Positions 7,682 through 60,662 of a DNA stretch of 64,000 nt are shown here, in pieces. A model generated the notes under the pieces. That model saw only the letters and a program-made list of their open reading frames with translations. It was not told the DNA's origin and ran no database searches. The DNA is from an uncultured Mycoplasmatota bacterium (GTDB lineage Bacteria; Bacillota_I; Bacilli_A; RF39; UBA660). The stretch is from the NCBI GenBank assembly GCA_900551525.1, contig URWD01000002.1, positions 1,152 to 65,151 of the forward strand, read 5' to 3'. Position 1 is the first letter of the stretch. Each line of letters starts with the position of its first letter. The position numbers were made by a program, and so were the translations under genes.

Positions 7682-7710
7682 TTGAAAAAACTCAAATAAT
7701 ATGGTAAACT
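7682..7710 (+). promoter_or_regulatory. Sigma-A-type promoter with extended -10, upstream of the pilus-like operon
   Basis: TTGAAA (7682-7687), a 17-nt spacer, then TGgTAAACT (7702-7710). Confidence 0.5.
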
Positions 7711-7732
7711 AAATCATAGGTAGGTGGGCAAA

Positions 7733-8494
7733 ATGCATAGTTTTAAAAAATCTGCAATAATTGCTTTTTCATCACTATTTTTACTAACAAATGTAAACGC
7801 AGCTACATGTGGTTATGAAGAAAAAGCAAAGTTAAATAATGAAATAACAAATGTAAAGGCAAATTATGAAATTAAAGAAAGGGTAATGAATAAAGACGAA
7901 TATACAATTTCCGATGCTTTAATTGGAACTGAATACGAAGATACGTATGAAGCCACAACAGAATATATTCAAGTAAATATTTTGAATTTAACTGAAAATA
8001 TGTATGTTGAAGTAACAAATGATTATAACGATGATAAAGCTATATATCAATATAGTGACACAAAAAACGGGAACATATCATTTGATTGGCATGAAATTGA
8101 TGAACTGGTAACATATACTATTAAGGTTTATGCCTCAAGCGCTACAGGATGTGAAGGAACGATACTAAAAACATTGTATCAAGCTTTACCAAGGTATAAT
8201 GATTACTCAACATATGATATTTGTAAAAATATTCCTGATTCGTATTTATGTCAAAGGTATGTAACATATGAAAATATCGGTTTTGATGTTTTTACTGGTA
8301 GAATATATAAAGAAGTAGAAAAGAAAATTCAAAAAGAAGAAGAAACTAAAGAAAATGAAAAATGGTATAAAAAGGTTCAAAACTTTATTGTTAAACATAA
8401 AGTGCCATTTATCATCGGGGGAACAATATTGGTTGTCGCAGTTGGAAGTACAACATATATAATAATAAAGAAACGTAGGAGAAGTATAATATGA
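7733..8494 (+). CDS. Secreted protein with C-terminal TM anchor and 4 Cys; first gene of the operon (unknown function)
   Basis: The start is ATG 7733 (alternative GTG 7724), preceded by a G-rich RBS (GGTGGG). It has the signal peptide AIIAFSSLFLLTNVNA/ATC and the C-terminal anchor PFIIGGTILVVAVGSTTYIII followed by KKRRRS. There is no LPXTG motif. Confidence 0.6.
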   Translation: MHSFKKSAIIAFSSLFLLTNVNAATCGYEEKAKLNNEITNVKANYEIKERVMNKDEYTISDALIGTEYEDTYEATTEYIQVNILNLTENMYVEVTNDYNDDKAIYQYSDTKNGNISFDWHEIDELVTYTIKVYASSATGCEGTILKTLYQALPRYNDYSTYDICKNIPDSYLCQRYVTYENIGFDVFTGRIYKEVEKKIQKEEETKENEKWYKKVQNFIVKHKVPFIIGGTILVVAVGSTTYIIIKKRRRSII

Positions 8495-11400
8495 AAAAAA
8501 ATTTGAAAATATTAATAATTTTATTAACAATTTTTATTGGTTTTGCTAGCGCTGATGTTAAAGCTAGAACCATTGAAGAAAAAGAACAATTTACAAAACA
8601 AGCTAGTGGAAAACATAGTATCAGTGGTTTGAGCATTTTTGATGGTACTACATTTGGTATGTGGAAATATTCATTTGTTGATACTTCCAGTGAAAATTTT
8701 GTGGGATACTGTATGGACCCACATAAAGACGCATCTAATGGATATAAAGTCGATCGTATTCTCGGAGATACAGCGTATACAAAAAGAATAAATGCTTTTG
8801 ACCTAGGTGTCCTAGAAATTATTAAAAATGGTAAAAACCAATATAATGATAGTTTAACCTTTACAGTTGATGGCAGTTCAAAAACAATTAGTGGAGATTC
8901 ACTTTATGCTGCAACAAGTATAGCGGTACGTGCTTTTGCTTTAGGTGTCTTTGGATATGGCGGAGATGTTGAAAGTGCTAAATCAAGTCTAGTTCCATAT
9001 TATACAGGTGTTGCATCAGCACATATAACTAGGGGAATTCAATGGGCATCATACAACATAGATAAAATAAATACAATAACTGATACAAAATGTACAGGTT
9101 CTGTTGAAGATTTCAGAAAATGTTATGAAAAAACTTTTATTAAAGGATTTTTAAAGAATAATTGGTATAAAAATAGTTATAATTTCAAAATAAGCAGCAG
9201 TAGCTCTGAAGGCTATTTAGTAATGTATGCGGCTCAAAGTTTATTTATGAAAGGTTTTAACAGAGCATATGAAGTAATAACTGGTGATGTAACGACTGCT
9301 ACAGTTACAGCAACTGCCAACCCTTCAACAACAGATAAAACAACAACAGATAATACTATTGAAGAATATTATCATCAAACAATAGAGTTTGCTCAATTTG
9401 ATGCTCAAGATGGAAAAATAGATAATTTTACATTAACATGTCAAGACTGTGCAAAAAATAATATAACTTTAGGAAATCTTGAATTTTTTAATCCACAAAT
9501 AAATGATTGGCAAGTTGTTTCAAATATTAACGTTTTAACAGCATTTGATGCTGATGGTAAAACAAAAAGTGGAAAAATAGAATTGAGATTTAAAGTTACT
9601 AGGATAAAAGATGATGAAAATTGCAAATCAGTAAATTATAAAATATCATATAGATACGATGACCCAAGTTTAAAATACATCGGAGCATTATTGAAAACTA
9701 GTGATACAAGTAAACAAAGATTCTTTATTATTCAAAAAAATGATGGAAATTTAAAAAGTGAAATAACTGGAACGATAAAATGTTCAGCTTCTTGTGATAC
9801 AGAATTAGAATTACCAGTATGTAGCTATGAAGAAGATGATGCTGTTGCAAAAATCAATGGTCCAACCAAGATTAAAACTTGTATAATAGATAACCAAGAT
9901 GATGCAGGTAACACATATCAATTTACATCAGATGTAGGTGGAGTTGACAATTCTTACTGTAAAATCTATTGTAAAGAAGATTATGCAGAAATTAAATTAA
10001 ACCCAATAGTTAAAAATGTAAAATGTGGTGGATATTTCAAATTAACAAGTAAAATAAATGGTACAAAAACTTGTTATACAGGAAGTCCAAATACAACAGA
10101 AAACTCAACAAATGGTAAAAACAGTATAGATAAAGAAAAGTATTTACAAGATATAATTGCTGCTCAAAATAAAATGATTGAAGGCAGAGATTGGATATTA
10201 AAGGCTGAAGCGGCTTGGAAAACTATTCATGAACATACTGTTTCTTGTAGTTGTAATGGTTCTTATGATTATAATCACTCTCATGGTTCATATGCAGGAA
10301 TTGAAGCTGGAACTCCAACTGCAGAAGGATATGTACCAATAAAAAATGCCACACATAGCTACAGCATCGGCGGTGGCGGTGCATGCAATGTTGATTGGGA
10401 TGAATGTCCAAATGCTAACGGAAATGGTACTCATCGTTGTTGCGGAAGTGCAAATCCTACAGATGGAGATAGTTATAGTGATGTTTCTAACAAAATTCAA
10501 TCTCAATATTACAACCACGGAAAACAATTAATAGAAGAAGGTTTCAGAGCTTATGAAAAGGCTTTGAGAGATTACAATGCTTGTACAACAGCATGGACAA
10601 ACGAATTTGCTTTTGCTCAAGAAGTAAGATATTATTATGATGAAAATCGTGGAAAAGATAATACAAACTATGCTCCATACTTTGATTTATTAACTGGTAA
10701 AGATGAATTACAAAAATTAGAAAAATATGGAAATGAAAAAGTTGATACAAAAATTACAGTATGCACTGGGGCAACAAATGACAAGTATGAATGCTTAAAT
10801 AAAAATAATGAAAAAACATTTGACTTATCAATAGATAGCAACAGAAAAGTTGATTATAATTATAATTCATCATATGGAAATGTCTTTGCAACAAAACCAT
10901 ATACAACTTGTACAGTAAATGGTTGCGAAACAAAGAACCCATACGTTTCACAAGCAGCGTTTATAAAAAAAGAAGTAACAAAAGAACAAAAATACATTAC
11001 ACCAACAGCTTTCTATCAAATAGCTGCTAACGGAAAAGTAATAGCTTACGACAATTATTCAATTGATAAGGTTCAACTAGAACCATTAGTTAATAAATTA
11101 CCAATATCAACAAGTTCAGTTGGTGGTGGAGTATTCAAACTACTAGTTGAAAATCTTGGTGAATTCTATGATAAAAAAGATACTTATGGTAGATTAATTG
11201 ATTACAATGGAGTTAATGAAACTAAGAGTGTAGCTTATGCAGTAGGTGTAAACGCATTTGATGGCGAATATGTATGCTACTATGAAAATACATGTAGACC
11301 AAAAGATTGTCCTAACTGTGACTTTGTTTGTGAAGGTGATGGATGTGAATGGAAAGACTGTCCTTCATGCAACATATCATGTGTTAACTGTATATTCAAC

Positions 11401-11937
11401 TTAGACGATTTAAATATAATAGTTAAAACAATTACTACAACAGATGTAAATGCAGCAAATAGAACACATGGTTATAACTGGATTACATCAAGTAGTATGG
11501 AAGCATTACAATTATTAACTAAAAAAGCTTCAATGACAATTAGTGAAATTGAAGAAATAAATGAAATGATATATGATGATAAGACAACAGATGGATCAAC
11601 ACTTGGATTTAGTATTAAATTAACACCTGAAATAATAAATAAAATTACAGCATATAACAAAGACAATGAAGATAATGGTGGTTATATAAATAACTCATTA
11701 ACATGTTATGATGCCACAATTGATGGTGAAACATATAAAAACATTTATTGTTATAGCGAACTAATTGACAAGTTAGTTACTGAAAATGGTGATAATGTTA
11801 CAGTACTTCCGAGTAGAGTAAATGATGAAGCAAGACGTGCTAATGACACTGGAACTAGTGGTTATTGGACATTATGGTCAAATTATAGAATAGATAAAAC
11901 AAGTGAATCCGTAATCGGCGGACCATCTTGGAAATAA
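8491..11937 (+). CDS. 1148-aa secreted cysteine-rich protein (candidate filament-associated adhesin; function unknown)
   Basis: ATG overlaps the upstream TGA, and the RBS is AGGAGAAG. It has the signal peptide MKKNLKILIILLTIFIGFASADVKA and about 37 Cys by my count. Ten of those Cys fall within 39 residues (nt 11275-11391), including a tandem KDCPxCxxxC repeat. It has no TM and no LPXTG. Confidence 0.7.
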   Translation: MKKNLKILIILLTIFIGFASADVKARTIEEKEQFTKQASGKHSISGLSIFDGTTFGMWKYSFVDTSSENFVGYCMDPHKDASNGYKVDRILGDTAYTKRINAFDLGVLEIIKNGKNQYNDSLTFTVDGSSKTISGDSLYAATSIAVRAFALGVFGYGGDVESAKSSLVPYYTGVASAHITRGIQWASYNIDKINTITDTKCTGSVEDFRKCYEKTFIKGFLKNNWYKNSYNFKISSSSSEGYLVMYAAQSLFMKGFNRAYEVITGDVTTATVTATANPSTTDKTTTDNTIEEYYHQTIEFAQFDAQDGKIDNFTLTCQDCAKNNITLGNLEFFNPQINDWQVVSNINVLTAFDADGKTKSGKIELRFKVTRIKDDENCKSVNYKISYRYDDPSLKYIGALLKTSDTSKQRFFIIQKNDGNLKSEITGTIKCSASCDTELELPVCSYEEDDAVAKINGPTKIKTCIIDNQDDAGNTYQFTSDVGGVDNSYCKIYCKEDYAEIKLNPIVKNVKCGGYFKLTSKINGTKTCYTGSPNTTENSTNGKNSIDKEKYLQDIIAAQNKMIEGRDWILKAEAAWKTIHEHTVSCSCNGSYDYNHSHGSYAGIEAGTPTAEGYVPIKNATHSYSIGGGGACNVDWDECPNANGNGTHRCCGSANPTDGDSYSDVSNKIQSQYYNHGKQLIEEGFRAYEKALRDYNACTTAWTNEFAFAQEVRYYYDENRGKDNTNYAPYFDLLTGKDELQKLEKYGNEKVDTKITVCTGATNDKYECLNKNNEKTFDLSIDSNRKVDYNYNSSYGNVFATKPYTTCTVNGCETKNPYVSQAAFIKKEVTKEQKYITPTAFYQIAANGKVIAYDNYSIDKVQLEPLVNKLPISTSSVGGGVFKLLVENLGEFYDKKDTYGRLIDYNGVNETKSVAYAVGVNAFDGEYVCYYENTCRPKDCPNCDFVCEGDGCEWKDCPSCNISCVNCIFNLDDLNIIVKTITTTDVNAANRTHGYNWITSSSMEALQLLTKKASMTISEIEEINEMIYDDKTTDGSTLGFSIKLTPEIINKITAYNKDNEDNGGYINNSLTCYDATIDGETYKNIYCYSELIDKLVTENGDNVTVLPSRVNDEARRANDTGTSGYWTLWSNYRIDKTSESVIGGPSWK

Positions 11938-11948
11938 GGGGTGACTAA

Positions 11949-12362
11949 ATGAAGAATGCATTCTGGGCATACTGGTTGATACTATTAGGTATAGTAATCG
12001 TAGTAATAATGCTACTTGTTCAAAATCTTACAACAAGTAGCACTCAAGATTACTATCTAATTAAAGAAATAACTGAAGCATCTATGATTGATGCAGTAGA
12101 TTATTCTTATTATAGAACCTATGGTGAAGTAAAAATAAACAAAGAAAAATTTTATGAAAGTTTTATACGTCGTTTTTCAGAAAATGCCGCATTAAACACA
12201 ACTTACACAGTAAGCTTTTATGGAGTTTATGAAGCTCCCCCAAAAGCTAGTGTAGAAATTAAAAGTAAATCTAATACATTCAATGTTGTAGGTGATTCAA
12301 CTACATTTGATATGGTAGAAAGAATAGATGCAATACTTGAAGGTAATACACTTGATGAATAA
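11949..12362 (+). CDS. N-terminally anchored small protein, possibly pseudopilin-like
   Basis: RBS GGGGTG precedes the start. FWAYWLILLGIVIVVIMLLV is a TM, followed by a ~100-aa extracytoplasmic domain. Confidence 0.45.
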   Translation: MKNAFWAYWLILLGIVIVVIMLLVQNLTTSSTQDYYLIKEITEASMIDAVDYSYYRTYGEVKINKEKFYESFIRRFSENAALNTTYTVSFYGVYEAPPKASVEIKSKSNTFNVVGDSTTFDMVERIDAILEGNTLDE

Positions 12363-12379
12363 CATAAGGAGGAATAAAA

Positions 12380-13150
12380 ATGGGTGGTAAGAAAAATGTA
12401 TTTACAAAGTTTTTAACAAATAAAACAACAGTTACGTTAGTAGGTATTGTTCTAGGACTAGGAGTTTTAGTGGGATTTTACATATATCGTGTTAATAAAC
12501 AAGTAAATCCCACCCGTATTCCTGTTGCTAAAAGAGCTATAAGTGCTACTGAAGAAATAACAAAAGATGACATCGAATATGTCAAAGTTAGTAAAAGTTT
12601 CTTAAAAAAAAGAGATGTTTATCAATCAGTAACAAATTTAGTTGGTAAATATGTTTCAACTGGAACATCTATTCCTAAGGGAGGAATGTTCTATACAGCT
12701 CAAGTTGTTGAAAAAAAGGAATTACCAAATGCTATATTTGATGAAATACCTGAAGGATATACAATCTATCAATTAAAAGTAGATAATAATACAACATATG
12801 CTAATTCAATATATCCTGGTGATAAAATAGATTTATGGCTTAAAACAACTGAAAATGGTATTTTAGTTTTTGGTGAATTTATATCAAATATTGAGGTCTT
12901 AGCAGTTCGTGATAATGCTGGTCAAAATGTTTTTGATGTTACAAGTGGAAGAACTCCAGCATGGTTATTATTTGCTGTAAAGACTGATTTATATCGTTAT
13001 TTAAAACTAGCTGAAAGCATATCTGGGATGACTATTATTCCGGTTCCAAAAAATAATTTGGCAAATCCAGATGTTGGGTCAACTGAATATACAAGTCAAG
13101 AACTTATAGATATTCTAGATAGACAAACTCTTAGAATGGAGGCCCAATAA
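12380..13150 (+). CDS. cpaB: Flp pilus assembly protein CpaB-like (SAF domain), paralog 1
   Basis: RBS AAGGAGG precedes the start. It has an N-terminal TM, the SAF-like segment IPVAKRAISATEEITKDDIEYVKV, and a C-terminal beta-rich RcpC/CpaB-like part. Confidence 0.6.
   Translation: MGGKKNVFTKFLTNKTTVTLVGIVLGLGVLVGFYIYRVNKQVNPTRIPVAKRAISATEEITKDDIEYVKVSKSFLKKRDVYQSVTNLVGKYVSTGTSIPKGGMFYTAQVVEKKELPNAIFDEIPEGYTIYQLKVDNNTTYANSIYPGDKIDLWLKTTENGILVFGEFISNIEVLAVRDNAGQNVFDVTSGRTPAWLLFAVKTDLYRYLKLAESISGMTIIPVPKNNLANPDVGSTEYTSQELIDILDRQTLRMEAQ
12792..12846. repeat. 55-nt patch nearly identical (54/55) to 13562-13616
   Basis: CAACATATGCTAAtTCAATATATCCTGGTGATAAAATAGATTTATGGCTTAAAAC, with a single t/c difference at 12805/13575. 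The flanking paralog sequence is clearly diverged. Confidence 0.9.
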
Positions 13151-13959
13151 TGAATAATATCTTAGCAAAAATTAAAAATTTATTTCTTAATAGAAATACT
13201 GTTACAATATTGGGCGTTATAGCTGGTGTTATAGCATTATGGTTTGCTTATAGTATAACTTTAGACAAAGCTGTAAAACCTCAAAAAGTGCCAGTTGCAG
13301 CCAAAGATTTAACTGCAGGAACAATTATAACAAAAGAAGATATTGAATATGTTGAAGTAAATTCTGATGTATTAAAAAAGGCAAGTGTAGTAACTAGTTC
13401 TTCACAACTTATTGGTTATTATGTAACAAATAATACATCAGTAGTTCGTGGTTCAATGTTTTACAAAAGTCAAGTTGTAACAAAAGATAAATTAATTGAA
13501 AGAGATTTGGAAACAGTCCCAGAAGGTTATAGACTTTACTGGCTAAAAGTAGACAATGCTTCAACATATGCTAACTCAATATATCCTGGTGATAAAATAG
13601 ATTTATGGCTTAAAACTAAGAATGAAGGCAAATATGTATACGAAGAATTTATAACAAATATTGAAGTTCTTAGTGTTAAAGATTCAAAAGGACAAAATGT
13701 TTTTGATGTATCAAGCGGAAGAACTCCAGCAGTACTTGTATTTGCAGTAACAGATGAAATGTTCTCATATTTAAGTAAAATAGGTTATTTAAGTGGTATG
13801 GATTTATATCCAGTTCCAATTAATAAAAAGAATTCAGATAAAGATGCTACTACAGAAATAACAAATGATGCTTTAAGAACATTAATCGATAGCCAAGCTA
13901 GAAATGTTACACCAGATACAAATGAATCAAATAATGATAATAATACAAATAATGAATAA
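13150..13959 (+). CDS. cpaB: Flp pilus assembly protein CpaB-like (SAF domain), paralog 2
   Basis: The start overlaps the upstream stop (TAATG). The architecture matches 12380-13150: VPVAAKDLTAGTIITKEDIEYVEV, and it shares the block YANSIYPGDKIDLWLKT. Confidence 0.6.
   Translation: MNNILAKIKNLFLNRNTVTILGVIAGVIALWFAYSITLDKAVKPQKVPVAAKDLTAGTIITKEDIEYVEVNSDVLKKASVVTSSSQLIGYYVTNNTSVVRGSMFYKSQVVTKDKLIERDLETVPEGYRLYWLKVDNASTYANSIYPGDKIDLWLKTKNEGKYVYEEFITNIEVLSVKDSKGQNVFDVSSGRTPAVLVFAVTDEMFSYLSKIGYLSGMDLYPVPINKKNSDKDATTEITNDALRTLIDSQARNVTPDTNESNNDNNTNNE
13562..13616. repeat. Second copy of the 55-nt conserved patch (see 12792-12846)
   Basis: Direct comparison of the two stretches gives an offset of exactly 770 nt. 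Confidence 0.9.
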
Positions 13960-13965
13960 AAGAGG

Positions 13966-15072
13966 GTGTTACTAGTGAATGATGCTGTATTTTCACAAAT
14001 AGATTTTGGACCTTTAAAAGAGTTTTTAGAAGAAGATAACATAACTGACGTATCATATTCTAATGGTGGTCAAGTTTGGCTAAAAACTCTTGATAAAGGT
14101 ATATATAGGGTTGAAAGACCAGAAATAAATAATGCTTTAATGGAAAAGCTAGCTTTTCAATGTTCAAATGTTATGGGTAAAACATTTAATATGGCCCATC
14201 CATTTTTGGATGCTGAATCTGCAGAACTTCGTTTAAACTTTGTTCATGAATCTATAGCCACAAATGGTATTTGTTGCGTTATAAGAAAGACGCCTGCCAA
14301 AATCCGTCTAAACAAAGATAAACTGATAAATGAAAAATATGTAACAGAGGATTTACATGACTTTTTAATGACTTGTGTTGAAGGACACTGTAATATTATT
14401 GTAAGTGGGGAAACTGGATCAGGTAAAACAGAACTTGTTAAATACTTAGCCGCTCATACAAAAGAAAATGAAAAAATAATAACAATTGAAGATACTCTAG
14501 AACTTCACTTAGATAAAATATTTCCACATCGTGATATTGTTGCTATGAAAACAAATAATATTGCATCTTACTCAGATGTACTAGTAACATGTATGCGACA
14601 AAACCCAAGATGGATTTTACTATCCGAAGTTCGTTCAGCAGAAGCAGTTACAGCAGTACGTAACTCAATATCATCTGGACACAACATTATATCAACAATT
14701 CACTCAGATAGAGCTTTAAACATACCAATGCGTTTATATAGTTTGCTAGAAAACAGTCAAGATATAGACCAATTCTTAAAGTCAATTCACAGATATGTTC
14801 AAATTGGTGTTCATGTTAAAGGTTACATGAGTAAAGAATTAGGTAGATTCCAACGTGAAATAATCGAAGTCGTAGAATTTTATGTTGATGAAAATAACGA
14901 AGCAAAATCCAATATTATCTTTAAAAAAAGTTTAGATGGCAAGTTCAGTTTTAATAACCCAAGTAAATATTTAATTGACTATTTAGGTGTTCAAGGTGTA
15001 ACATTAAAACCAGATTATTTTGTCAAATCAAAAAATGACACAAATTCAGAAGCTGAAATAGAAAGCTTATAA
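13966..15072 (+). CDS. cpaF: CpaF/TadA-type (VirB11-like) type II/IV secretion ATPase
   Basis: It has Walker A VSGETGSGKTE, Walker B / Asp box RWILLSEVR and His box SGHNIISTIHS, at ~365 aa. The start is GTG 13966 or in-frame GTG 13975; the RBS AAGAGGG at 13960-13966 overlaps GTG 13966, so it favours 13975. Confidence 0.85.
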   Translation: MLLVNDAVFSQIDFGPLKEFLEEDNITDVSYSNGGQVWLKTLDKGIYRVERPEINNALMEKLAFQCSNVMGKTFNMAHPFLDAESAELRLNFVHESIATNGICCVIRKTPAKIRLNKDKLINEKYVTEDLHDFLMTCVEGHCNIIVSGETGSGKTELVKYLAAHTKENEKIITIEDTLELHLDKIFPHRDIVAMKTNNIASYSDVLVTCMRQNPRWILLSEVRSAEAVTAVRNSISSGHNIISTIHSDRALNIPMRLYSLLENSQDIDQFLKSIHRYVQIGVHVKGYMSKELGRFQREIIEVVEFYVDENNEAKSNIIFKKSLDGKFSFNNPSKYLIDYLGVQGVTLKPDYFVKSKNDTNSEAEIESL

Positions 15073-15090
15073 CAGAAAGGAGCGTTTAAT

Positions 15091-16014
15091 ATGTTTACAG
15101 TTAATTTAACAAGTTATTTACCAGAATTGTTAATACTATTAGCAATTGCTACAGTGGTTTTAATAGCTCGTCGAAATCCTGGTGAAAACGTATATAAATA
15201 TGTAACAAATAAAGCAACTGATATGTATGATAAATACGCTCCATACTCATTTAAAATGGTAAGAGAAAAAGCAGTTGAATTAGGACAAGAATATACTCCA
15301 AGACAATATTTAACACAAGTTATAATTCTTGGTGGTATAGCAGCTTTAGTAGGATATTTTTACTTTTATAGTATTGTCATTGCTGTAATATATGCAATTG
15401 TAGCCATAGCATTTATACCATATCTTGCTTATTTAAGACTACAAAGAGTGTATAGTGAATATATATTTGAACAAATACAAACATATACAACAAATGTTAT
15501 AATGGAATTTAATACAACTCAAAGTTTTGTTAAAGCTCTTGAAGGTGTTAGAGATTCAGGGATTCTTGAAGAACCAGTTGTTAGTGATGTCAAAAAGATG
15601 ATTGAAATGTCATATCAAAATGGTACCATAGATGAATCAATAACTTATTTTAATAGCAAATACCCATTTTACATGGTAAAAAATATGCATCAATTATTCC
15701 TACAAATAACCAAAGAAGGTGCCAGAGATTCAGGACAAGCATTAGAAAATATGTCACTTGATATTGATGCCTTAGTAGAAGGTGTATATCGTGACCAAAT
15801 GGACAGAAATAATTTCCATGGCAGATTCCTAAGATTCGGTTTAATTTTATATTTACTCGTTATAGTTTTAAGATTCATGTTAGGTGAAGACAATTATATT
15901 AAATTACTAGATATATGGTATGTACAAATTATTTTACATGCTATTGTCATTATAAATGCTTTCTTTATGTTAAGTGGAGAAAAATACTATAATGAAGATG
16001 TAGGAGGAGAATAA
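15091..16014 (+). CDS. tadB: TadB-like platform protein (T2SS-F family)
   Basis: RBS AAAGGAG precedes the start. It is polytopic, with an N-terminal TM, a central TM pair and a C-terminal TM pair. The cytoplasmic helical domain is TTNVIMEFNTTQSFVKALEGV..., and the gene sits directly after the ATPase. Confidence 0.6.
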   Translation: MFTVNLTSYLPELLILLAIATVVLIARRNPGENVYKYVTNKATDMYDKYAPYSFKMVREKAVELGQEYTPRQYLTQVIILGGIAALVGYFYFYSIVIAVIYAIVAIAFIPYLAYLRLQRVYSEYIFEQIQTYTTNVIMEFNTTQSFVKALEGVRDSGILEEPVVSDVKKMIEMSYQNGTIDESITYFNSKYPFYMVKNMHQLFLQITKEGARDSGQALENMSLDIDALVEGVYRDQMDRNNFHGRFLRFGLILYLLVIVLRFMLGEDNYIKLLDIWYVQIILHAIVIINAFFMLSGEKYYNEDVGGE

Positions 16015-16802
16015 TGCAAATAGAAGTTATTATTGTCGCTGTAATCGTATTTGGTATAATGACTATAACTGGTCAAATAAGTATTAATCAGCTTATAAGT
16101 GATAATCAAATGCTTTTTATGAAGTTAAAAGAAAAAGATTGGGATTTTCTAGTCAGAGCCAAGTATGGAAATAATGTTAATCCAGACATTCTCTTTAATA
16201 AAAGAATAAAAAATGCTCTAATTACTATGGCTATAGCATTTGCCTTTTTAATCAAAGATTTAAATGCTGTTAAAGTATTATTAATATTTGTTCTAGGAGT
16301 GTTTATCTTTAAAACATCTTATAATGATATAAAAAAATATTATCAACGACATATGTCTGAAATAGACTCGATGTTACCACATTATTTAAAAAACCTAGAA
16401 ATATTAATTCAACATTATACTGTACCAGTTGCTATTGGTAAATCAATGGCTGAATCACCAGAAATATTTAAAGATGGATTACAAGAAATGATTGACTCTA
16501 TAAATTCTGGGGATGATACGATCGAACCATATATGGAATTTGCTAGAAAGTATCCAGTACGTGATTCAATGCGTATGATGCGTTTATTATATCGTCTAAG
16601 TTTAGGACGTCAAGAAAGAAAACAAGAACAAATACTAACATTTTCAAGATCAATATCTTCACTTCAACAAAAAGCTCGTGAAACAAGATACAAAAATAGA
16701 CTAGAAAAAATGGAAGGCAAAACCATGAGTATGCTTATAACAACTGGGGTAGGATTAATGATATTACTAGTTTTAGCTGTTATACAACTTATGGACATAT
16801 AA
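16014..16802 (+). CDS. tadC: TadC-like platform protein (T2SS-F family)
   Basis: TAATG overlap with the upstream gene. It has LPHYLKNLEILIQHYTVPVAIGKSMAESPEIFKDGLQEMIDSINSGDDTIEPYMEFARKYP and a C-terminal TM, typical of GspF/TadC domains. Confidence 0.65.
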   Translation: MQIEVIIVAVIVFGIMTITGQISINQLISDNQMLFMKLKEKDWDFLVRAKYGNNVNPDILFNKRIKNALITMAIAFAFLIKDLNAVKVLLIFVLGVFIFKTSYNDIKKYYQRHMSEIDSMLPHYLKNLEILIQHYTVPVAIGKSMAESPEIFKDGLQEMIDSINSGDDTIEPYMEFARKYPVRDSMRMMRLLYRLSLGRQERKQEQILTFSRSISSLQQKARETRYKNRLEKMEGKTMSMLITTGVGLMILLVLAVIQLMDI

Positions 16803-16826
16803 ATTTACAAAAAGTTTAAAATATAA

Positions 16827-16855
16827 TTGATATTTTAAGGAAATTAAGTTATAAT
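16827..16855 (+). promoter_or_regulatory. Internal sigma-A-type promoter in front of the pilin genes
   Basis: TTGATA (16827-16832), a 17-nt spacer, then TATAAT (16850-16855). A strong RBS GGAGG (16871-16875) follows. Confidence 0.55.
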
Positions 16856-16882
16856 AAAAATATATTAAAAGGAGGATAACAA

Positions 16883-17128
16883 ATGAAAGAAGCTACTGGA
16901 GAATTAAATATGACTGTAGTTACTGTAGTTGCAATTGCTGCTGTTGGTGCTTTCTTCTATTTCTTTATCTGGCCTGGTATTCAAGCTGGACTTTCAAGAA
17001 ATACTTGCCTAAATCTATGTCCAGGCGGAGAATTGGACACAGCCCAAGGACGTGGTGGTGTAGATGTTAATAACAGAACTTGTTTTTGTGCAGATGGAAC
17101 ACAAATAGATTTTGGCGACGAAGAATAA
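16883..17128 (+). CDS. Small Flp-sized pilin candidate 1 (81 aa, 4 Cys in the head)
   Basis: The layout is a short polar leader MKEATGELNMT, a ~22-aa hydrophobic helix VVTVVAIAAVGAFFYFFIWPGI, and a small Cys-containing C-terminal part. It sits in a Tad-like operon. Confidence 0.5.
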   Translation: MKEATGELNMTVVTVVAIAAVGAFFYFFIWPGIQAGLSRNTCLNLCPGGELDTAQGRGGVDVNNRTCFCADGTQIDFGDEE

Positions 17129-17150
17129 GACAAAACATAAGAGGTGAAAA

Positions 17151-17411
17151 ATGAAAGAGGCTACAGGAGAATTAAATATGACGATAATAGTTTCTATATC
17201 GATCGGTATCTTGGCAGCCTTTTTTTTCGGCTTTTTATGGCCAATGATTAATGGAAATTTTCAAAAAAATTCACAATGTAGCAAAGCTATATGTGATTGT
17301 AGTACTGAAGTAAGAAATACAATAGAAAACGAAACTGGTCAAAAAAATCATTGTTTATGCAGAAATAGTGCAACAGATGAAAACACTTTTTATTGCCCAT
17401 TCAAAGGTTAG
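17151..17411 (+). CDS. Small Flp-sized pilin candidate 2 (86 aa, 6 Cys in the head)
   Basis: RBS AGAGGTGA precedes the start. The leader MKEATGELNMT is identical to pilin 1 at the protein level and nearly so at the DNA level. A hydrophobic helix follows, then a divergent Cys-rich head. Confidence 0.5.
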   Translation: MKEATGELNMTIIVSISIGILAAFFFGFLWPMINGNFQKNSQCSKAICDCSTEVRNTIENETGQKNHCLCRNSATDENTFYCPFKG

Positions 17412-17420
17412 GAGGAAATT

Positions 17421-17918
17421 ATGAAAGAATCGATGAGTGTAACATATATATTTCAAATAGTAATACTATTTATTCTATTATTTACAGCAATAATGGCTTT
17501 AACAATAAATAATTCCAACGCCTTTGGAATTAAAGACCAAATAGTAAATATATTAGAAGCAAATGGGGGAAATTACTTAGAAGACGGAAATTTAGATGAA
17601 GAAATAATAAATTTAATAGAAAGTACATCATATCGTACAACTGGAAAATGCGATGAAGATTATCAAGGTTTTGATAGAACTGGAGCTGCTGTTTCATCTA
17701 ATCAAGATGCATCAATATGCATAAAAGAAGTAAATGCAACAGATGGTGTAGATAATTATCTATCGGATATTTTTGGCACTGGTAAAGTTGCAACAGGTGA
17801 TTTTATGCCAGGCAAATATTATCAAATAGTAGTATTTTTCCAATTAGATTTACCAGTTGTAAAACAAGTTTATAATTTTAAATCTAAAGCTGAAACAAAA
17901 GTTATATACCAAAAATAA
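17421..17918 (+). CDS. TadE-like pseudopilin candidate 1
   Basis: RBS AGGAGG precedes the start. The N-terminal helix is TYIFQIVILFILLFTAIMALTI, followed by a ~135-aa domain. It shares TGKC(D/P)E(D/N)... with 17932-18384. Confidence 0.4.
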   Translation: MKESMSVTYIFQIVILFILLFTAIMALTINNSNAFGIKDQIVNILEANGGNYLEDGNLDEEIINLIESTSYRTTGKCDEDYQGFDRTGAAVSSNQDASICIKEVNATDGVDNYLSDIFGTGKVATGDFMPGKYYQIVVFFQLDLPVVKQVYNFKSKAETKVIYQK

Positions 17919-17931
17919 GGAGAGAAATTAA

Positions 17932-18384
17932 ATGAAAACAGTAAGTGAATCAACATGGACATTTCAAATGATTATCTTCTTCATTCTAATATTTGCTTGT
18001 TTTCTAACTTTAGTTTTAAGTTATAATAAAGCTTATACAATAAAGAATCGTATGCTTAATATTATTGAAAAATATGAAGGTGTAACACCAACATCAGCTG
18101 AGCTAATAAATGACTACATATATAATAAAGGATATACCAATACTGGTAAATGTCCAGAAAACTGGATGGGAGCAACAAATATAGATGGAGAATTTGAGTT
18201 ATCAAAAAGTGATAACAGATATTTATATTGCTTTAAAAAAAGTTATAAAAATAATTTAGTATATTATGATGTAAAAGTTTTTTTTAGATTTAATTTACCT
18301 GTTATAGGTAGTATAGCAAACTATGAAATAGATGGAACAACAAAGACTTTTATAGGTGCAGAAGATCAAATAGAGGAGTATTAA
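17932..18384 (+). CDS. TadE-like pseudopilin candidate 2
   Basis: RBS AAGGAGAG precedes the start. The N-terminal helix is TWTFQMIIFFILIFACFLTLVL. It is a paralog of 17421-17918. Confidence 0.4.
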   Translation: MKTVSESTWTFQMIIFFILIFACFLTLVLSYNKAYTIKNRMLNIIEKYEGVTPTSAELINDYIYNKGYTNTGKCPENWMGATNIDGEFELSKSDNRYLYCFKKSYKNNLVYYDVKVFFRFNLPVIGSIANYEIDGTTKTFIGAEDQIEEY

Positions 18385-18385
18385 T

Positions 18386-19375
18386 ATGAATGTAATAGTA
18401 TCAAATAAATATCAATCATTATTATCAAGTTTAAATATTGATGTAATTAAAAGTATAAATGGAGAATTTACAGTAGAAGAATTAGTAAGTCAATTTCAAA
18501 GTTTTTACTTTAATAAAATGATTATAGACATAACAGCAATAAAAGGTTATGAAGAAATAACAGTAATGCAAAATTTATCTGTAAATTTTGATATGTCTAA
18601 AGTTATTTTATTACTAGATGATTCAGAAAAAGTTAATTCTCCAGTATATATATCACAATTAATATCTATGGGAATATACAATTTCACCAGTGATATAAAT
18701 ACAGTAAAATACCTAATAGATAATCCCAATCAATACAAAGATGTAGCAAACTATCATAATATAAGTGGATTTAAGAAACCAGTATTAAATGAAAGATCTG
18801 TTGATAATACTCGTGGTAAAATGGGGCAAAAGATTATTGGCTTTAAAAACATTACAGAACATGCTGGTGCAACAACACTAATATATTTGCTTAAATTACA
18901 CTTAGAAAAGGCATATAATGTTAAAGCTGTAGAAATAGATAAAAATGACTTTATATATTTTAATGATAATACACTTGAAAGTGTATCAAGTTTAGGTTTT
19001 AATGATTTTTTAAGTAATAATACCAATTATGATATAATTTTAGTTGATTTAAATGATGGAAACGTATCTGAGTACTGTCATGATATAATTTATTTAATTG
19101 AACCAGGTCTTATTAAATTAAATAAGTTAATTAGAGAAGACAATGCTATATTTACTAAATTAAATGAAAAAAAGATAGTTCTTAACAGAAGTGTACTTGA
19201 CACAAAAGATGTACAAGACTTTGAAAAAGAAAGTGGAAGTAAAGTTTTTTTCAATATGCCTTGTTTAGATGATAAGTTAGATGATCAAATGGTAGTTAAT
19301 GCTTTTTTAACAGCCTTAGGTTTTAGTAGAATTGATGCAAATGGAAGTTCAGGAATATTTAGTATATTCAAATAG
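18386..19375 (+). CDS. TadZ/CpaE-like protein: receiver-like N-domain plus ParA/MinD-like domain with degenerate Walker A
   Basis: RBS GAGGAG precedes the start. The N-terminus has a flavodoxin-like pattern (MNVIVSN...KMIIDITA...VILLLDD). The C-terminus has IIGFKNITEHAGATTLIYLL (where KGGxGKTT is expected), DIILVDLN, IYLIEPG and KIVLNR. Confidence 0.5.
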   Translation: MNVIVSNKYQSLLSSLNIDVIKSINGEFTVEELVSQFQSFYFNKMIIDITAIKGYEEITVMQNLSVNFDMSKVILLLDDSEKVNSPVYISQLISMGIYNFTSDINTVKYLIDNPNQYKDVANYHNISGFKKPVLNERSVDNTRGKMGQKIIGFKNITEHAGATTLIYLLKLHLEKAYNVKAVEIDKNDFIYFNDNTLESVSSLGFNDFLSNNTNYDIILVDLNDGNVSEYCHDIIYLIEPGLIKLNKLIREDNAIFTKLNEKKIVLNRSVLDTKDVQDFEKESGSKVFFNMPCLDDKLDDQMVVNAFLTALGFSRIDANGSSGIFSIFK

Positions 19376-19389
19376 GGAGGTAATGGAAT

Positions 19390-19740
19390 ATGAATTTTTG
19401 TTATAAGACTGCAAGTGTATGGTTATTTATTGGTAAATTATTATTCATTTTAAAGATATTAATACCAATAGCTATTATAGTATTAGGAAGCATAGATTTA
19501 GGAAAAGCAGTAATTTCAAGTGATGATAAATCAATAAAAACAGCTAGTACCAAGCTATTAAAAAGAATAGTAGCTGGAATATGCATTTTTTTCATACCAG
19601 TTATTATAAAAGTGTTATTTTCTATGATTGGCATTATAAGTGATGAAATAAAAAATGACTATATAAATTGTATAAACTGCATTACAGATCCGTATAACAA
19701 TTGTGATGCATCGTATGAAGGCAATATATACAAAAAATAA
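19390..19740 (+). CDS. 2-TM small membrane protein with N-terminal Cys and C-terminal C-x2-C-x6-C tail (family member 1)
   Basis: RBS GGGAGG precedes the start. Sequence: MNFCYKTASVWLFIGKLLFILKILIPIAIIVLGSIDLGKAVISSDDKSIK...RIVAGICIFFIPVIIKVLFSMIG...INCINCITDPYNNC. Confidence 0.6.
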   Translation: MNFCYKTASVWLFIGKLLFILKILIPIAIIVLGSIDLGKAVISSDDKSIKTASTKLLKRIVAGICIFFIPVIIKVLFSMIGIISDEIKNDYINCINCITDPYNNCDASYEGNIYKK

Positions 19741-19769
19741 TTGACTTTAATGTAAAATTAGGGTAAAAT
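19741..19769 (+). promoter_or_regulatory. Sigma-A-type promoter candidate
   Basis: TTGACT (19741-19746), a 17-nt spacer, then TAAAAT (19764-19769). RBS GAAGGAGG follows. Confidence 0.5.
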
Positions 19770-19796
19770 AAATATATACAGAAGGAGGAAAGTTTT

Positions 19797-20135
19797 ATGA
19801 ATTTTTGTGAAGATGCTGGTTCAGTTTGGTATACTCTTGGAATGTTTATGTTAGTATTCAAAGTTGTTATTCCAGTACTATTGATTGTTTTTGGAATGGT
19901 AGACTTAGGAAAAGCTGTAATATCAAGTGATGACAAAGCTGTATCAAAGGCTGCTAAAACATTATTAAATCGTGTTATAGCTGGGGTATGTATTTTCTTT
20001 ATTCCAACTATTGTAGGATTAGTATTTAAAATGGTTGGGGCATTTGGTGAGGTTAAAAATCAATATGATTATTGTGCTGCATGCGTAAGTAATCCAACCG
20101 GTGATAAATGTTCAGGTATAAAAAATAATGGCTAA
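19797..20135 (+). CDS. 2-TM small membrane protein with N-terminal Cys and C-terminal C-x2-C-x6-C tail (family member 2)
   Basis: Sequence: MNFCEDAGSVWYTLGMFMLVFKVVIPVLLIVFGMVDLGKAVISSDDKAVS...RVIAGVCIFFIPTIVGLVFKMVG...YCAACVSNPTGDKC. It is a paralog of 19390-19740. Confidence 0.6.
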   Translation: MNFCEDAGSVWYTLGMFMLVFKVVIPVLLIVFGMVDLGKAVISSDDKAVSKAAKTLLNRVIAGVCIFFIPTIVGLVFKMVGAFGEVKNQYDYCAACVSNPTGDKCSGIKNNG

Positions 20136-20157
20136 AAAAAATTAATAATTTAAACTT

Positions 20158-20196
20158 AACAAATGAGAAATTATTATTTCTCATTTGTTTTTTATT
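20158..20196 (+). terminator. Strong rho-independent terminator closing the operon
   Basis: A 14-bp perfect stem pairs AACAAATGAGAAAT (20158-20171) with ATTTCTCATTTGTT (20176-20189), with loop TATT, followed by TTTTTATTT. Confidence 0.85.
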
Positions 20197-20298: not shown

Positions 20299-20325
20299 TA
20301 AAAAATAGAGCTTATTCAGCTCTAT
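20299..20325 (-). terminator. Terminator of the 514-aa minus-strand gene
   Basis: Stem ATAGAGC (20305-20311) pairs with GCTCTAT (20319-20325) and spans the stop codon. The A-run 20300-20305 gives a U-run on the minus strand. Confidence 0.5.
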
Positions 20326-21856
20326 CTTCATATTCTCCAGTATAAGTATATCCTGCAAGTGATTTTTCTTTGCTCCATTTATATTCAAATGTTCTATGTG
20401 TCCAAGTATATTCAGTGTCAGTATCTATAATAGCATAGTCTTCATACTTAGATGCATTAGAAGCTAAATCCCATTTACATTTGCTTTCTCTTGTATAACT
20501 AACATCAAATTTCAATGGTACAAAATATACATTTTGACTTAAATTGCTAGCATAATATGGTGATACACCATTTAAATTTTTATAATTAATTGTAATTGTT
20601 GTAGCATAATTTCCTTCAGCTCTATTATAATAAGCTCCAGAAACTTCAAATGTAAAGTTATTTTTCTTTAATGAAGTATTTCTAAATGTTGATGCATTAT
20701 TTATTGCAACATTATATTTTCCAGTATTACCAGTCATATATAGGTTACCACGATTGTTAATATAAGCTTGATAGTCAGTATTTGAATTACTGAAATAAGA
20801 TTTACTATTGCCTACAATAGCAACACTATTAACATCACTAGGTAAATCTAGGAATTGAACTTCATAGTTATATTTACCAACTTTAGTAGTATCAGTAACA
20901 TATCCAGTTGAATAATAAGTTTTTTCATATTCTTTACAATAATTATTAGTTTCTACCAATTGTTTTTTATTTTCAGCATTAGAAGCATTAGAGTAACCGT
21001 TTTCCCAATCACTATATTTTACATATTTATAATATCTAACCTTGGTAGGTGTAGGATTAGGTTTGTTGTTATCGTTATTATTATTATTATTATTGTTATT
21101 GTTATTATTATTGTTATTGTTGCAATTTGTTTGACAACAACCATTTGAACAAGTTATTTTTATTGTAACCTTAGTAGTAACTGTTGTTTTAGTACTTGTA
21201 CTAGTGCTTGAACTATTTCCTTTACTAGTATTAGTATTATTTGAACTATTGTTACTATTTGTATTATTGTTAGTATTACTATTATTCTTATTTGTATTAG
21301 AATTTGTATTATTAGAGTTATTATTGTTGTTATTGTTATTATCAACAACATCAGTATTAGTTTTTGTATTATCTACTGTACAAGTTCCATTATCACATGA
21401 AGTCTTTTCAATAGTAGTAACAATAAAGTCTGATTGTTTTCCACAAGTTAAACTAACTTTTAATGCATAATTACCATCAGCAGTTTTAGTAGTTTGAATG
21501 TAACTTGAATTATTATCACAAGTTTTACCATCGTTAGTAAAATCGATTAATAACTTTTGGTTAATCATTTGTGCTAGTGTTACTTTTTCAGTTGCACCAA
21601 CTTTTTCAGGTAATTTTGATTTTGTGAAATATTCAAATGCTGCAGTTTTCATAGTGTTTATATTATTAATATATTTACTATTACTATCAGCTAATGTGTT
21701 ACTAGATTTAGTTGAACTATTGCCGGTTACTTTAACAAATATCCAACCAGCTATAAACACAATAACTGCAAGAATCACAAGTTTAATTGCAAGTGATCCC
21801 CAATTTAAACTTAAACTTTTCTTTCCATCTTCGTACATATAACGTACCCCCTTCAT
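20312..21856 (-). CDS. N-anchored surface protein with a pilin-like proximal domain, long Asn/Ser/Thr low-complexity spacers and a beta-rich C-terminal domain
   Basis: RBS GAGGA lies 8 nt upstream of ATG 21856. The TM is LAIKLVILAVIVFIAGWIFV. It has a Cys-bracketed domain (...DGKTCDNN...KVSLTCGKQ), poly-N runs, and a 250-aa Y/N/T-rich C-terminus. Confidence 0.7.
   Translation of the reverse strand: MKGVRYMYEDGKKSLSLNWGSLAIKLVILAVIVFIAGWIFVKVTGNSSTKSSNTLADSNSKYINNINTMKTAAFEYFTKSKLPEKVGATEKVTLAQMINQKLLIDFTNDGKTCDNNSSYIQTTKTADGNYALKVSLTCGKQSDFIVTTIEKTSCDNGTCTVDNTKTNTDVVDNNNNNNNNSNNTNSNTNKNNSNTNNNTNSNNSSNNTNTSKGNSSSTSTSTKTTVTTKVTIKITCSNGCCQTNCNNNNNNNNNNNNNNNNDNNKPNPTPTKVRYYKYVKYSDWENGYSNASNAENKKQLVETNNYCKEYEKTYYSTGYVTDTTKVGKYNYEVQFLDLPSDVNSVAIVGNSKSYFSNSNTDYQAYINNRGNLYMTGNTGKYNVAINNASTFRNTSLKKNNFTFEVSGAYYNRAEGNYATTITINYKNLNGVSPYYASNLSQNVYFVPLKFDVSYTRESKCKWDLASNASKYEDYAIIDTDTEYTWTHRTFEYKWSKEKSLAGYTYTGEYEDRAE
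21063..21123. repeat. Imperfect trinucleotide (ATT/GTT on +, i.e. AAT/AAC Asn codons on -) tract
   Basis: gttgttatcgttattattattattattattgttattgttattattattgttattgttg encodes an uninterrupted run of 15 Asn within NNNNNNNNNNNNNNNDNN. Confidence 0.9.
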
Positions 21857-26803: not shown

Positions 26804-26965
26804 GATGAAAATTCTTATTTTTCTTTGATAAAAATTGCTATGCGACGTAATAAATTTTTTATCTACTTTTGTAAAGTTTTTACATATTTTGTAACTCAAA
26901 AATGTAAAGAAAAGTTAATTCATGCAAAATGGTGTGTCGAACCATGAGAGGTTTTGTCGAAAGCC

Positions 26966-26993
26966 TTGAAAGTGGTAAAAAGGTGTGTATAAT
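26966..26993 (+). promoter_or_regulatory. Sigma-A-type promoter candidate for the Rpn-like gene
   Basis: TTGAAA (26966-26971), a 16-nt spacer, then TATAAT (26988-26993). Confidence 0.45.
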
Positions 26994-27021
26994 AGCTTGG
27001 CAAGAAAGGAGGTTTCCACTT

Positions 27022-43453: not shown

Positions 43454-43504
43454 ATTATCACCAAAATAATTGCTATAATAATTGTATAAGATAAGGTGAT
43501 ATTA

Positions 43505-60445: not shown

Positions 60446-60521
60446 TGGTGGGCTGTTAGGGATTCGAACCCTAGACCCATTGATTAAGAGTCAATTGCTC
60501 TACCAACTGAGCTAACAGCCC
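60446..60521 (-). tRNA. tRNA-Lys (anticodon CTT), CCA encoded
   Basis: The reverse complement is GGGCTGTTAGCTCAGTTGGTAGAGCAATTGACTCTTAATCAATGGGTCTAGGGTTCGAATCCCTAACAGCCCACCA. All four stems pair, the anticodon loop is CT-CTT-AA, and the T-loop is TTCGAAT. Confidence 0.95.
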
Positions 60522-60608
60522 ATTGTTAACATTTATTGTTTTAATTTCCAACAACAAATAGATTATATCAAAAAGTTATTCATAATGCAAGGTATTTGCA
60601 TAAAATAA

Positions 60609-60637
60609 TTGTTAATTTTTAGAATAAATGTTATACT
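60609..60637 (+). promoter_or_regulatory. Promoter candidate for the HerA-like gene
   Basis: TTGTTA (60609-60614), a 17-nt spacer, then TGtTATACT (60629-60637). Confidence 0.35.
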
Positions 60638-60662
60638 TAAATAAAGAATAGGAATGGTTGTT

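Follow-up and report, generated by a model that had tools for sequence, protein, structure and literature searches.

In a 64,000-nucleotide stretch of DNA from an uncultured gut bacterium of the Bacilli (hereafter the window), a block of 15 co-directional genes on the plus strand (7733-20135) probably encodes a Tad-like machine of the type IV filament superfamily that belongs to a monoderm and diverges strongly from known ones. Based on comparisons of its predicted proteins with known families and with related loci, we put the probability of this reading at roughly 70%. The locus is best read as belonging to an uncharacterised, DUF5411-associated subfamily of the Firmicutes that is fixed in the chromosome here and enriched in cysteine-stabilised surface parts. 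The generic model of a type IV filament consists of an ATPase, an inner membrane platform and a major pilin (Denise et al. 2019). The predicted features of the locus are as follows, with a slash marking the presumed end of each leader.

7682..7710, plus strand: promoter P1 (TTGAAA-17-TGgTAAACT), upstream of g01; from scan and comparison
7733..8494, plus strand: g01, secreted protein with a signal peptide, 4 Cys, a C-terminal transmembrane (TM) anchor and a KKRRR tail
8491..11937, plus strand: g02, 1148-amino-acid (aa) secreted Cys-rich protein with a signal peptide and a hypervariable cassette
11949..12362, plus strand: g03, DUF5411 protein (137 aa) with an N-terminal helix and the pilin-like leader MK[EN][AS]xW[G/A]/YW
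12380..13150, plus strand: g04, CpaB/RcpC-like protein 1 (N-terminal TM segment, SAF and RcpC domains)
13150..13959, plus strand: g05, CpaB/RcpC-like protein 2 (Pfam RcpC and SAF)
13966..15072, plus strand: g06, secretion ATPase of the CpaF/TadA-VirB11 group, 368 aa (Pfam T2SSE)
15091..16014, plus strand: g07, polytopic platform protein 1 (TadB/TadC-like by transitive profile comparison), five hydrophobic segments
16014..16802, plus strand: g08, platform protein 2, a paralogue of g07 (from hidden Markov model [HMM] and merged profile)
16827..16855, plus strand: promoter P2 (TTGATA-17-TATAAT) of the pilin genes, 11 of 12 consensus positions
16883..17128, plus strand: g09, pilin candidate 1, 81 aa, MKEATG/ELNMT, 4 Cys
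17151..17411, plus strand: g10, pilin candidate 2, 86 aa, same leader as g09, 6 Cys
17421..17918, plus strand: g11, minor-pilin-like protein 1, 165 aa, N-terminal helix, 2 invariant Cys
17932..18384, plus strand: g12, minor-pilin-like protein 2, 150 aa, a paralogue of g11
18386..19375, plus strand: g13, two-domain pseudo-NTPase, alpha/beta N-domain plus a SIMIBI-type P-loop fold
19390..19740, plus strand: g14, 2-TM protein, T4SS_pilin-like (VirB2-like) paralogue a, N-terminal FC and C-terminal CxxC...C
19741..19769, plus strand: promoter P3 (TTGACT-17-TAAAAT) of the last 2-TM gene, g15
19797..20135, plus strand: g15, 2-TM protein, T4SS_pilin-like paralogue b
20158..20196, plus strand: intrinsic terminator, 14-bp stem plus T-run; from scan (hairpin 20158-20189)

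The ATPase, CpaB-like and platform proteins

An earlier note on this DNA had predicted a CpaF/TadA-type ATPase, and g06 indeed belongs to the T2SSE/CpaF/VirB11 family. It matched Pfam T2SSE at E = 7.6e-29 (100.9 bits against a cut-off of 24.9), and its best match among solved structures in the PDB was CpaF (2.7e-19), followed by FlaI (3e-16) and VirB11 (1.6e-14). In NCBIfam, VirB11 was the best match (2e-33), followed by the TadA-type ATPase (4e-31), both under their cut-offs. The two tandem SAF/CpaB-like proteins that had also been predicted were upheld by Pfam, NCBIfam and hhalign. The Pfam scores of g05 lay above both cut-offs (RcpC, 31.6 bits against 28.8; SAF, 31.2 bits against 21), and its profile reached 85% in hhalign against canonical CpaB; g04, which reached 73%, matched RcpC (1.3e-4), SAF (5.9e-4) and TIGR03177 (3.7e-10), in each case under the cut-off. 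Many relatives carry a single CpaB copy.

The assignment of g07 and g08 as platform proteins of the type II secretion system (T2SS) F type was supported through merged profiles, which recovered their paralogy and their kinship to TadB/TadC; direct Pfam, PDB-profile and AlphaFold2 (AF2)/Foldseek comparisons recovered neither. Direct tests of both proteins on Pfam, NCBIfam and PDB profiles gave no family match, and PDB profile searches with g07, g08, the merged platform alignments or the Priestia T2SSF protein alone gave no meaningful match. When family HMMs were used, the g07 model found a Priestia plasmid protein labelled "T2SS F family" at 40 bits and a Bacillus cereus plasmid protein at 14.6 bits, and the g08 model found Priestia, B. 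cereus and pLS20 (gene 39) proteins at 52, 33 and 17 bits, respectively. On the Priestia and B. cereus plasmids, platform protein 1 carries the annotation T2SS F family and falls just below the Pfam T2SSF cut-off. Against canonical proteobacterial TadB/TadC, the Bacillus-plasmid platform 1 proteins reached 96.4% in hhalign (E = 1e-9) and the platform 2 homologues 84%; profiles that merged the lineage with the Bacillus plasmid proteins reached 70% (E = 3.9e-5) for g07 and 91.5% (E = 8.6e-7) for g08. The platform 1 and platform 2 profiles matched each other at 94% (E = 1.3e-7), and the negative controls of these comparisons gave at most 0.3%. Because the profiles chain through the Bacillus plasmid homologues, g07 and g08 are shown to be paralogous TadB/TadC-related platform proteins only by transitive profile comparison.

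Prepilin-like, accessory and cysteine-rich proteins

Five proteins of the locus (g03, g09, g10, g11 and g12) look like prepilins because they share a leader followed by a hydrophobic helix. The common leader reads M-K/R-E/N-A/S-x(1-2), mostly ending in G (sometimes in A, S or E), and this pattern, which was derived from the five proteins, fits only 5 of the 431 ATG-started open reading frames (ORFs) of the window, namely the same five. The leaders of g09 and g10 had been described as atypical. The G/xxxxEY processing site is indeed absent, but both proteins begin with a nearly invariant MKEATG/ELN, with Gly at position 6, that leads into the hydrophobic helix; in g09, the N-terminus is invariant over 56 orthologues. 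The two candidates are paralogues (hhalign 100%), as are g11 and g12 (hhalign 100%), whose families share the leader M[KR]E[AS]x[G/S], and 71% of g12 orthologues have G at position -1. The pilins of the B. cereus plasmid carry a longer leader ending in ...NESG/MHNLF, with Gly at -1 and Asn at +3 as in g09 and g10.

The labels "Flp" and "TadE-like" that had been given to these proteins held for size and topology only. The pilin candidates had no Flp_Fap match and reached 0.5% in hhalign against Flp, and g11 and g12 reached 0.4% against canonical TadE, with agreement limited to size, topology and position; weak similarity (hhalign 40%) linked g11 to the DUF4320 proteins of the Bacillus loci. The 137-aa product of g03 had been called N-anchored and unassignable. 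An N-terminal helix is there, but the protein is a member of DUF5411 (Pfam, 3.5e-58, 195.7 bits) with a pilin-type N-terminus, and its homologues include pLS20 gene 36 and proteins of the Priestia and B. cereus plasmid loci. An hhalign comparison of DUF5411 with TadE and DUF4320 was negative.

Consistent with the earlier note, no ORF with at least three TM segments in the 64 kb resembled a polytopic A24-type prepilin peptidase. Absence near the locus does not show absence from the genome, and Tad peptidase genes are often encoded elsewhere or shared between systems, such that a locus without one is not unusual (PMC6668835). In 22 of 55 related loci, a divergent gene for a CPBP (CAAX-type) intramembrane protease lies within 1.5 kb upstream of gene 1 (e.g., L052, 3740-4312); this gene, which is absent from the window, is a possible candidate for leader processing. 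A Priestia koreensis plasmid (L082, 1461-1979) encodes an unannotated 172-aa polytopic protein upstream of its Tad-like locus. This protein has no Pfam match and contains the sequences ITDVKELKTYN and SPGDTKMF, which resemble the Asp motifs of TadV-type aspartyl prepilin peptidases.

The 2-TM proteins g14 and g15 had been left unassigned apart from their CxxC tails. The tails were confirmed, with an N-terminal Cys and a C-terminal CxxC...C conserved in the family, but a weak match to the VirB2-like type IV secretion system (T4SS) pilins of PF18895 (T4SS_pilin) had been missed. Eleven of 20 family members matched this model at E ≤ 0.01 (best, 7.6e-7); the window g15 did so at 9e-4 (19.7 bits, under the 26.6-bit cut-off), and the window g14 did not match. 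Direct comparison of g14 and g15 with pLS20 gene 45 was negative.

The reading of g13 as a TadZ/CpaE homologue was dropped, since its 50 best Foldseek matches lacked TadZ, its hhalign comparisons were not significant and its family is closed. The AF2 model of g13 (predicted local distance difference test [pLDDT] score, 73.5) joins an alpha/beta N-domain through a disordered linker to a C-domain with a SIMIBI P-loop fold, and only this fold class and the two-domain layout resemble TadZ. The best Foldseek match was IcmF (fused mutase, 1.8e-6), followed by HypB/UreG/MeaB (E = 1e-4 to 1e-3) and ParA (4e-3), and no TadZ structure was among the best 50 matches. There was no Pfam match, no PDB sequence match and no profile link to TadZ (hhalign 3%), and the hhalign comparison with the Bacillus ParA-like protein was not significant. 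The Walker A motif is a degenerate KNxTEHAGATT that has lost its lysine, a state conserved across a small family confined to 576 clusters among 1.84 billion representatives (HMMER).

The two secreted proteins at the 5' end carry conserved cysteines. The 4 Cys of g01 are 98 to 100% conserved in 66 orthologues, and the protein matched no Pfam or NCBIfam family. The predicted size and cysteine content of g02 (1148 aa, ~37 Cys) were correct: it has 37 Cys, ~24 of which are conserved in at least 80% of 59 orthologues. An obvious wall or membrane anchor is lacking, and searches assigned the protein to no family and gave no meaningful match in the PDB. Its best conserved part is the C-terminal third, and a hypervariable cassette spans aa ~550-700 (nucleotides ~10138-10590). 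In the related locus L001, g02 is 81 to 83% identical to that of the window and the cassette 32%, while the ATPase is 99% and the other operon proteins 88 to 100% identical. The protein is a candidate adhesin or displayed cargo. Cysteines are conserved where the proteins otherwise diverge, including both Cys of g11 and both of g12. The earlier statement that almost every extracytoplasmic product carries paired cysteines is thus partly right, but it fails for both CpaB-like proteins, DUF5411 and both platform proteins, which have none.

Cysteine-rich proteins are also encoded outside the locus. The convergent neighbour (20312-21856, minus strand) encodes an N-anchored protein of 514 aa that has 10 Cys and long low-complexity runs of Asn, Ser and Thr and matched no family; it adjoins the locus in many relatives (25 to 85% identity) and is possibly a further surface protein associated with the system. 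Two tandem genes (43496-44812 and 44831-46042, plus strand) encode ~400-aa proteins that contain 11 and 9 Cys and each have three TM segments near the C-terminus, in matching positions; the N-terminus of one is lipoprotein-like and that of the other signal-peptide-like, and neither protein matched Pfam or NCBIfam. Envelope proteins rich in Cys seem to be habitual in this organism.

Operon structure and chromosomal setting

The co-direction and tight spacing reported for the block were confirmed in the ORF list, but the count of 16 genes was not: there are 15, the earlier list itself totals 15, and no spacer in 7733-20135 is long enough for a 16th ORF. Genes overlap at 8491/8494, 13150 and 16014 and elsewhere lie 7 to 25 nucleotides apart, except at two larger gaps of 81 nucleotides (16802-16883) and 57 nucleotides (19740-19797). 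All three promoter-like sites (7682-7710, 16827-16855 and 19741-19769) and the terminator hairpin that had been proposed were recovered by our scan. Since the scan found 120 promoter-like sites in this 27% G+C window, compared with 105 ± 9 in shuffled sequences, it is uninformative by itself. In related loci, however, the -35 and -10 elements of P1, P2 and P3 and the ribosome-binding sites form conserved blocks within variable AT-rich spacers, even where the proteins are only ~50% identical. The -35, the extended -10 and the AGGTAGGTG ribosome-binding site of P1 are kept in more than 25 related loci, and P2 is exact or has one mismatch in nearly all of 36 related spacers, including those of relatives with ~50% protein identity. 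Most related loci have a TTGAC(A/T)...TAAAAT promoter ahead of the 2-TM gene, and most have a hairpin with a T-run after the last gene. Because these elements are conserved in otherwise variable spacers, the block is predicted to have one outer promoter and two internal ones, the latter serving the pilin genes and the last 2-TM gene.

Beyond platform 2, 5 to 10 kb of flanking sequence yielded nothing in at least 12 related loci, among them L052 and L026. The break in these shortened loci falls at P2, and the locus therefore consists of two modules. Related loci L038, L040 and L061 have a terminator-like hairpin, lacking in the window copy, between platform 2 and P2, and the two modules may be separate transcripts there. 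An Rfam search of the locus found no riboswitch or other RNA.

The window derives from the chromosome of an uncultured lineage of gut Bacilli, the Clostridium sp. CAG:609/Candidatus Onthocola group, which probably belongs to the GTDB order RF39; NCBI places Onthocola in Bacilli incertae sedis. Its genes include the housekeeping genes uvrA, lgt, trxB, gltX, cysS, uppS, RNase J, ackA, nusA, infB and truB, and a megablast search of the locus against plasmid and phage collections gave no match; on these two grounds, a mobile element was ruled out. Relatives of the ATPase occur in at least 567 species-representative genomes, labelled uncultured Bacilli, "uncultured Tenericutes," Clostridium sp. CAG:609 or Candidatus Onthocola, and the best 80 are 77 to 99% identical. 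A synteny comparison, which the earlier note had proposed, found the same gene order in related loci whose retrieved DNA spans the locus, and where flanks were retrieved, the site often lies between the same phosphoesterase gene and uvrA. Copy number varies among relatives, with 1 or 2 CpaB genes, 1 or 2 pilin genes and 1 or 2 2-TM genes. Identity to relatives is 77 to 99% for the ATPase, 55 to 100% for the platform proteins, 50 to 98% for g13, 49 to 99% for DUF5411 (g03), 31 to 99% for CpaB and about 20 to 81% for the 1148-aa g02. These comparisons show that a large lineage of uncultured gut Bacilli has conserved the locus vertically and at a single chromosomal site.

Two further features were noted elsewhere in the window. 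A PD-(D/E)XK transposase-family gene (26929-27891) lies amid housekeeping genes. At 60446-62390, a tRNA-Lys (CTT) on the minus strand is directly followed by a HerA/FtsK-like ATPase gene (DUF87, FtsK_SpoIIIE and a weak TrwB match), which could mark the edge of an integrated element.

Related systems, rival explanations and significance

The earlier note could not map this gene complement onto a described system. No characterised counterpart was found, but collinear relatives exist on Bacillaceae plasmids, including pLS20, and a related operon has been predicted in the Clostridia. The closest annotated relatives of the ATPase (27 to 34% identity) are encoded on Bacillaceae plasmids, many of them predicted to be conjugative; these include pLS20-type plasmids and pXO1- and pXO2-sized plasmids of Bacillus anthracis, and the latter also encode platform homologues. 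On the Priestia and B. cereus plasmids, the order is large surface protein, DUF5411, CpaB, ParA-like protein, ATPase, T2SSF protein and platform 2, followed by two pilins and a DUF4320 protein in B. cereus and by a DUF4320 protein only in Priestia. In the pLS20-type plasmid pNARUSE (L081, 8395-13214), genes 36-37-38-39 encode DUF5411, the ATPase, platform 1 and platform 2. DUF5411, a CpaF/VirB11-like ATPase and two platform genes thus occur in one collinear block in the window, Priestia, B. cereus and pLS20. The pLS20-family block (genes 34-47) and the Priestia and B. cereus loci also agree with the window in the position of an N-anchored ~120-aa protein after platform 2, in a large surface protein or adhesin upstream and in a T4SS_pilin-family 2-TM protein downstream; in pLS20, gene 45 (76 aa) scores 32.1 bits against PF18895, above the cut-off. 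Unlike the window locus, the pLS20 version adjoins VirD4, VirB4 and VirB6 genes, the Priestia and B. cereus loci (not pLS20) have a recognisable ParA-like gene before the ATPase, and the plasmid versions lack the Cys-rich character. The 2021 description of pLS20 gives genes 36-47 as of unknown function and states that there is no VirB2 homologue (PMC8557374), and our literature search found no link between pLS20 and a pilus.

A "secretion-related operon" of Roseburia, Ruminococcus and Eubacterium, which was predicted by a language model and left uncharacterised (Miller et al. 2022, PMC9523054), shares with the locus a CpaF, a PilC/GspF-like protein, DUF5411, a large surface protein and an origin in gut Firmicutes. 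It differs in its occurrence in Clostridia and in having 8 or 9 genes and an internalin-like large protein, a comparison made by description and not gene by gene. A literature search found no described system of this kind in RF39.

Compared with Tad/Flp (type IVc) systems such as Aggregatibacter tad, Caulobacter cpa and those of the monoderms Bifidobacterium breve and Micrococcus luteus, the locus has the same single CpaF/TadA-type ATPase, two platform paralogues, CpaB/RcpC-like proteins, small pilin genes and two minor-pilin-like genes. As expected for a monoderm and as in monoderm Tad loci, it contains no secretin. Its ATPase gene is followed by the two platform genes and then by the pilin and minor-pilin-like genes, which is also the tadA-tadB-tadC-flp-tadE-tadF order of actinobacterial loci. 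In contrast to Flp, the pilin candidates have no G/xxxxEY site but a 6-residue leader with Glu at +1, a mature length of 75 to 80 aa and a Cys-rich tail, and no Flp, TadE or TadZ homology is detectable in the locus. The organiser candidate g13 differs from TadZ in lying at the end of the locus and in the loss of the Walker A lysine, and g01, g02, DUF5411 and the VirB2-like proteins are parts additional to Tad. Pilins of PF18895, which are VirB2/TrbC-like, are known from T4SS arrays of Patescibacteria (bioRxiv 10.1101/2025.01.22.634366). They resemble g14 and g15 in being small 2-TM hairpins that often occur as tandem variable copies (g15 having its own promoter). In contrast, g14 and g15 fall below the Pfam cut-off, have the extra N-terminal Cys and C-terminal CxxC...C and have no VirB4 or VirB6 nearby: no VirB4, VirB6, coupling protein or relaxase gene adjoined the locus or was found among the window ORFs scanned, which were all but a few, and the HerA/FtsK-like gene lies 40 kb away.

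If the locus encodes a Tad-like machine, a hexamer of the ATPase g06 would dock on the g07/g08 platform, pull g09 and g10 subunits out of the membrane and polymerise them into a thin filament, for which g11, g12 and g03 would serve as priming minor pilins. The membrane-anchored CpaB-like proteins g04 and g05 could provide a ring or conduit across the zone of the wall, g13 (the pseudo-NTPase) might act as a TadZ-like organiser, and the membrane-anchored g01 as a helper. The fast-evolving Cys-rich g02, with its hypervariable cassette, would be the surface binding module. The conserved, even-numbered cysteines may form disulfides or bind metal, and the 6-residue MKEATG leader would either be cut by a prepilin peptidase encoded elsewhere or be left in place, cleavage being dispensed with. 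The most likely use of such a filament is attachment to host material or other cells.

Several observations weigh against a Tad-like filament. Among the proteins of the locus, only the ATPase, g05 and DUF5411 reach a curated family threshold, and the ATPase is about equally near VirB11 and CpaF. Profiles built from the lineage alone do not reach TadB/TadC, Flp, TadE or TadZ, and the AF2 model of g07 is poor (pLDDT, 59.5), with nothing under E = 1 in Foldseek. The pilin candidates lack Glu at +5, and the window g12 has Glu instead of Gly at the presumed -1 position. No A24 peptidase was found in the 64-kb window or, in 80 relatives, in the retrieved DNA of up to 10 kb on each side of the locus. 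Finally, a filament, a transcript or a protein has not been observed.

The plasmid location of the closest ATPase relatives, the collinearity of pLS20 genes 36-39 with DUF5411, the ATPase and the two platform genes, and the T4SS_pilin family common to pLS20 gene 45 and g14/g15, which have their own conserved promoter, speak for an apparatus for cell-cell contact or for DNA transfer or uptake. The locus would then be a domesticated chromosomal relative of the pLS20-type block that precedes the T4SS core, in which a Tad-like motor and a VirB2-like pilin jointly bring partner cells or DNA to the surface instead of serving simple adhesion. Tad pili do mediate DNA uptake in Micrococcus (PMC6370729) and are reported to be essential for it in Liberibacter (PMC8513845). 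We nevertheless consider this doubtful, as VirB4, VirD4, VirB6 and relaxase genes do not adjoin the locus, its chromosomal site between the phosphoesterase gene and uvrA is fixed, g14 and g15 lack direct similarity to gene 45 and score under the Pfam cut-off in the window, and pLS20 genes 36-47 are themselves of unknown function.

Quite unlikely, in our view, is a T2SS-like pseudopilus, a short piston that pushes g02 and perhaps other cargo through the wall. It would account for the presence of g02 in the operon, where it is translationally coupled to g01, for its signal peptide without an obvious anchor and for the large surface protein that the Priestia and B. cereus loci encode in this position, and Miller et al. 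classed the Clostridia relatives as secretion related. However, a Sec-type signal peptide is already present in g02, and in a monoderm there is no outer membrane to be crossed; the strong, conserved promoter dedicated to the pilin genes fits an abundant filament subunit, and CpaB-type and TadB/TadC-type parts are typical of Tad pili and not of T2SSs. We regard as very improbable that there is no type IV filament at all and that a VirB11-type ATPase and two novel membrane proteins assemble g14 and g15, with the five pilin-like proteins as uncleaved bitopic accessories. This would fit the best NCBIfam match of the ATPase (VirB11), the T4SS_pilin matches of the g14/g15 family and the lack of an A24 peptidase, of Flp or TadE similarity and of Glu at +5. 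It sits poorly with the platform link to TadB/TadC, the presence of CpaB, the fact that CpaF is the solved protein closest to the ATPase and, although it has no Pfam match, the small polytopic protein of the Priestia locus that carries TadV-like Asp motifs. It would also require VirB2-like pili without VirB4, on which known VirB2 pili depend.

Returning to the Tad-like filament, it is unlikely, but conceivable, that the machine works without any A24 peptidase, its MKEATG tag being left on or removed by another protease (e.g., CPBP) and its filament co-assembling or cooperating with the VirB2-like pilin. If this were true, the locus would, like the pLS20 block, be a living intermediate that connects Tad pili with pilus-less conjugation in Gram-positive bacteria. 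The locus in any case raises the testable question of whether a type IV filament can work when the leader has 6 residues, Glu5 is missing and a dedicated peptidase is possibly absent as well.

A Tad-like reading of the locus would provide a first functional frame, as pilin-like proteins, for Pfam DUF5411. It also suggests that the unassigned genes 36-45 of pLS20-type plasmids, and perhaps related genes on pXO1/pXO2, make up a module that is Tad-like and includes a VirB2-like pilin, an idea that is testable because pLS20 is genetically tractable in Bacillus subtilis. For the host lineage, which is widespread and uncultured and appears to be genome reduced, the locus represents a 12.5-kb surface machine that has been retained. 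Given that the ATPase is 77 to 99% identical in the best 80 of at least 567 species-level genomes while the g02 cassette is hypervariable, the locus is likely key to attachment to a host or partner.

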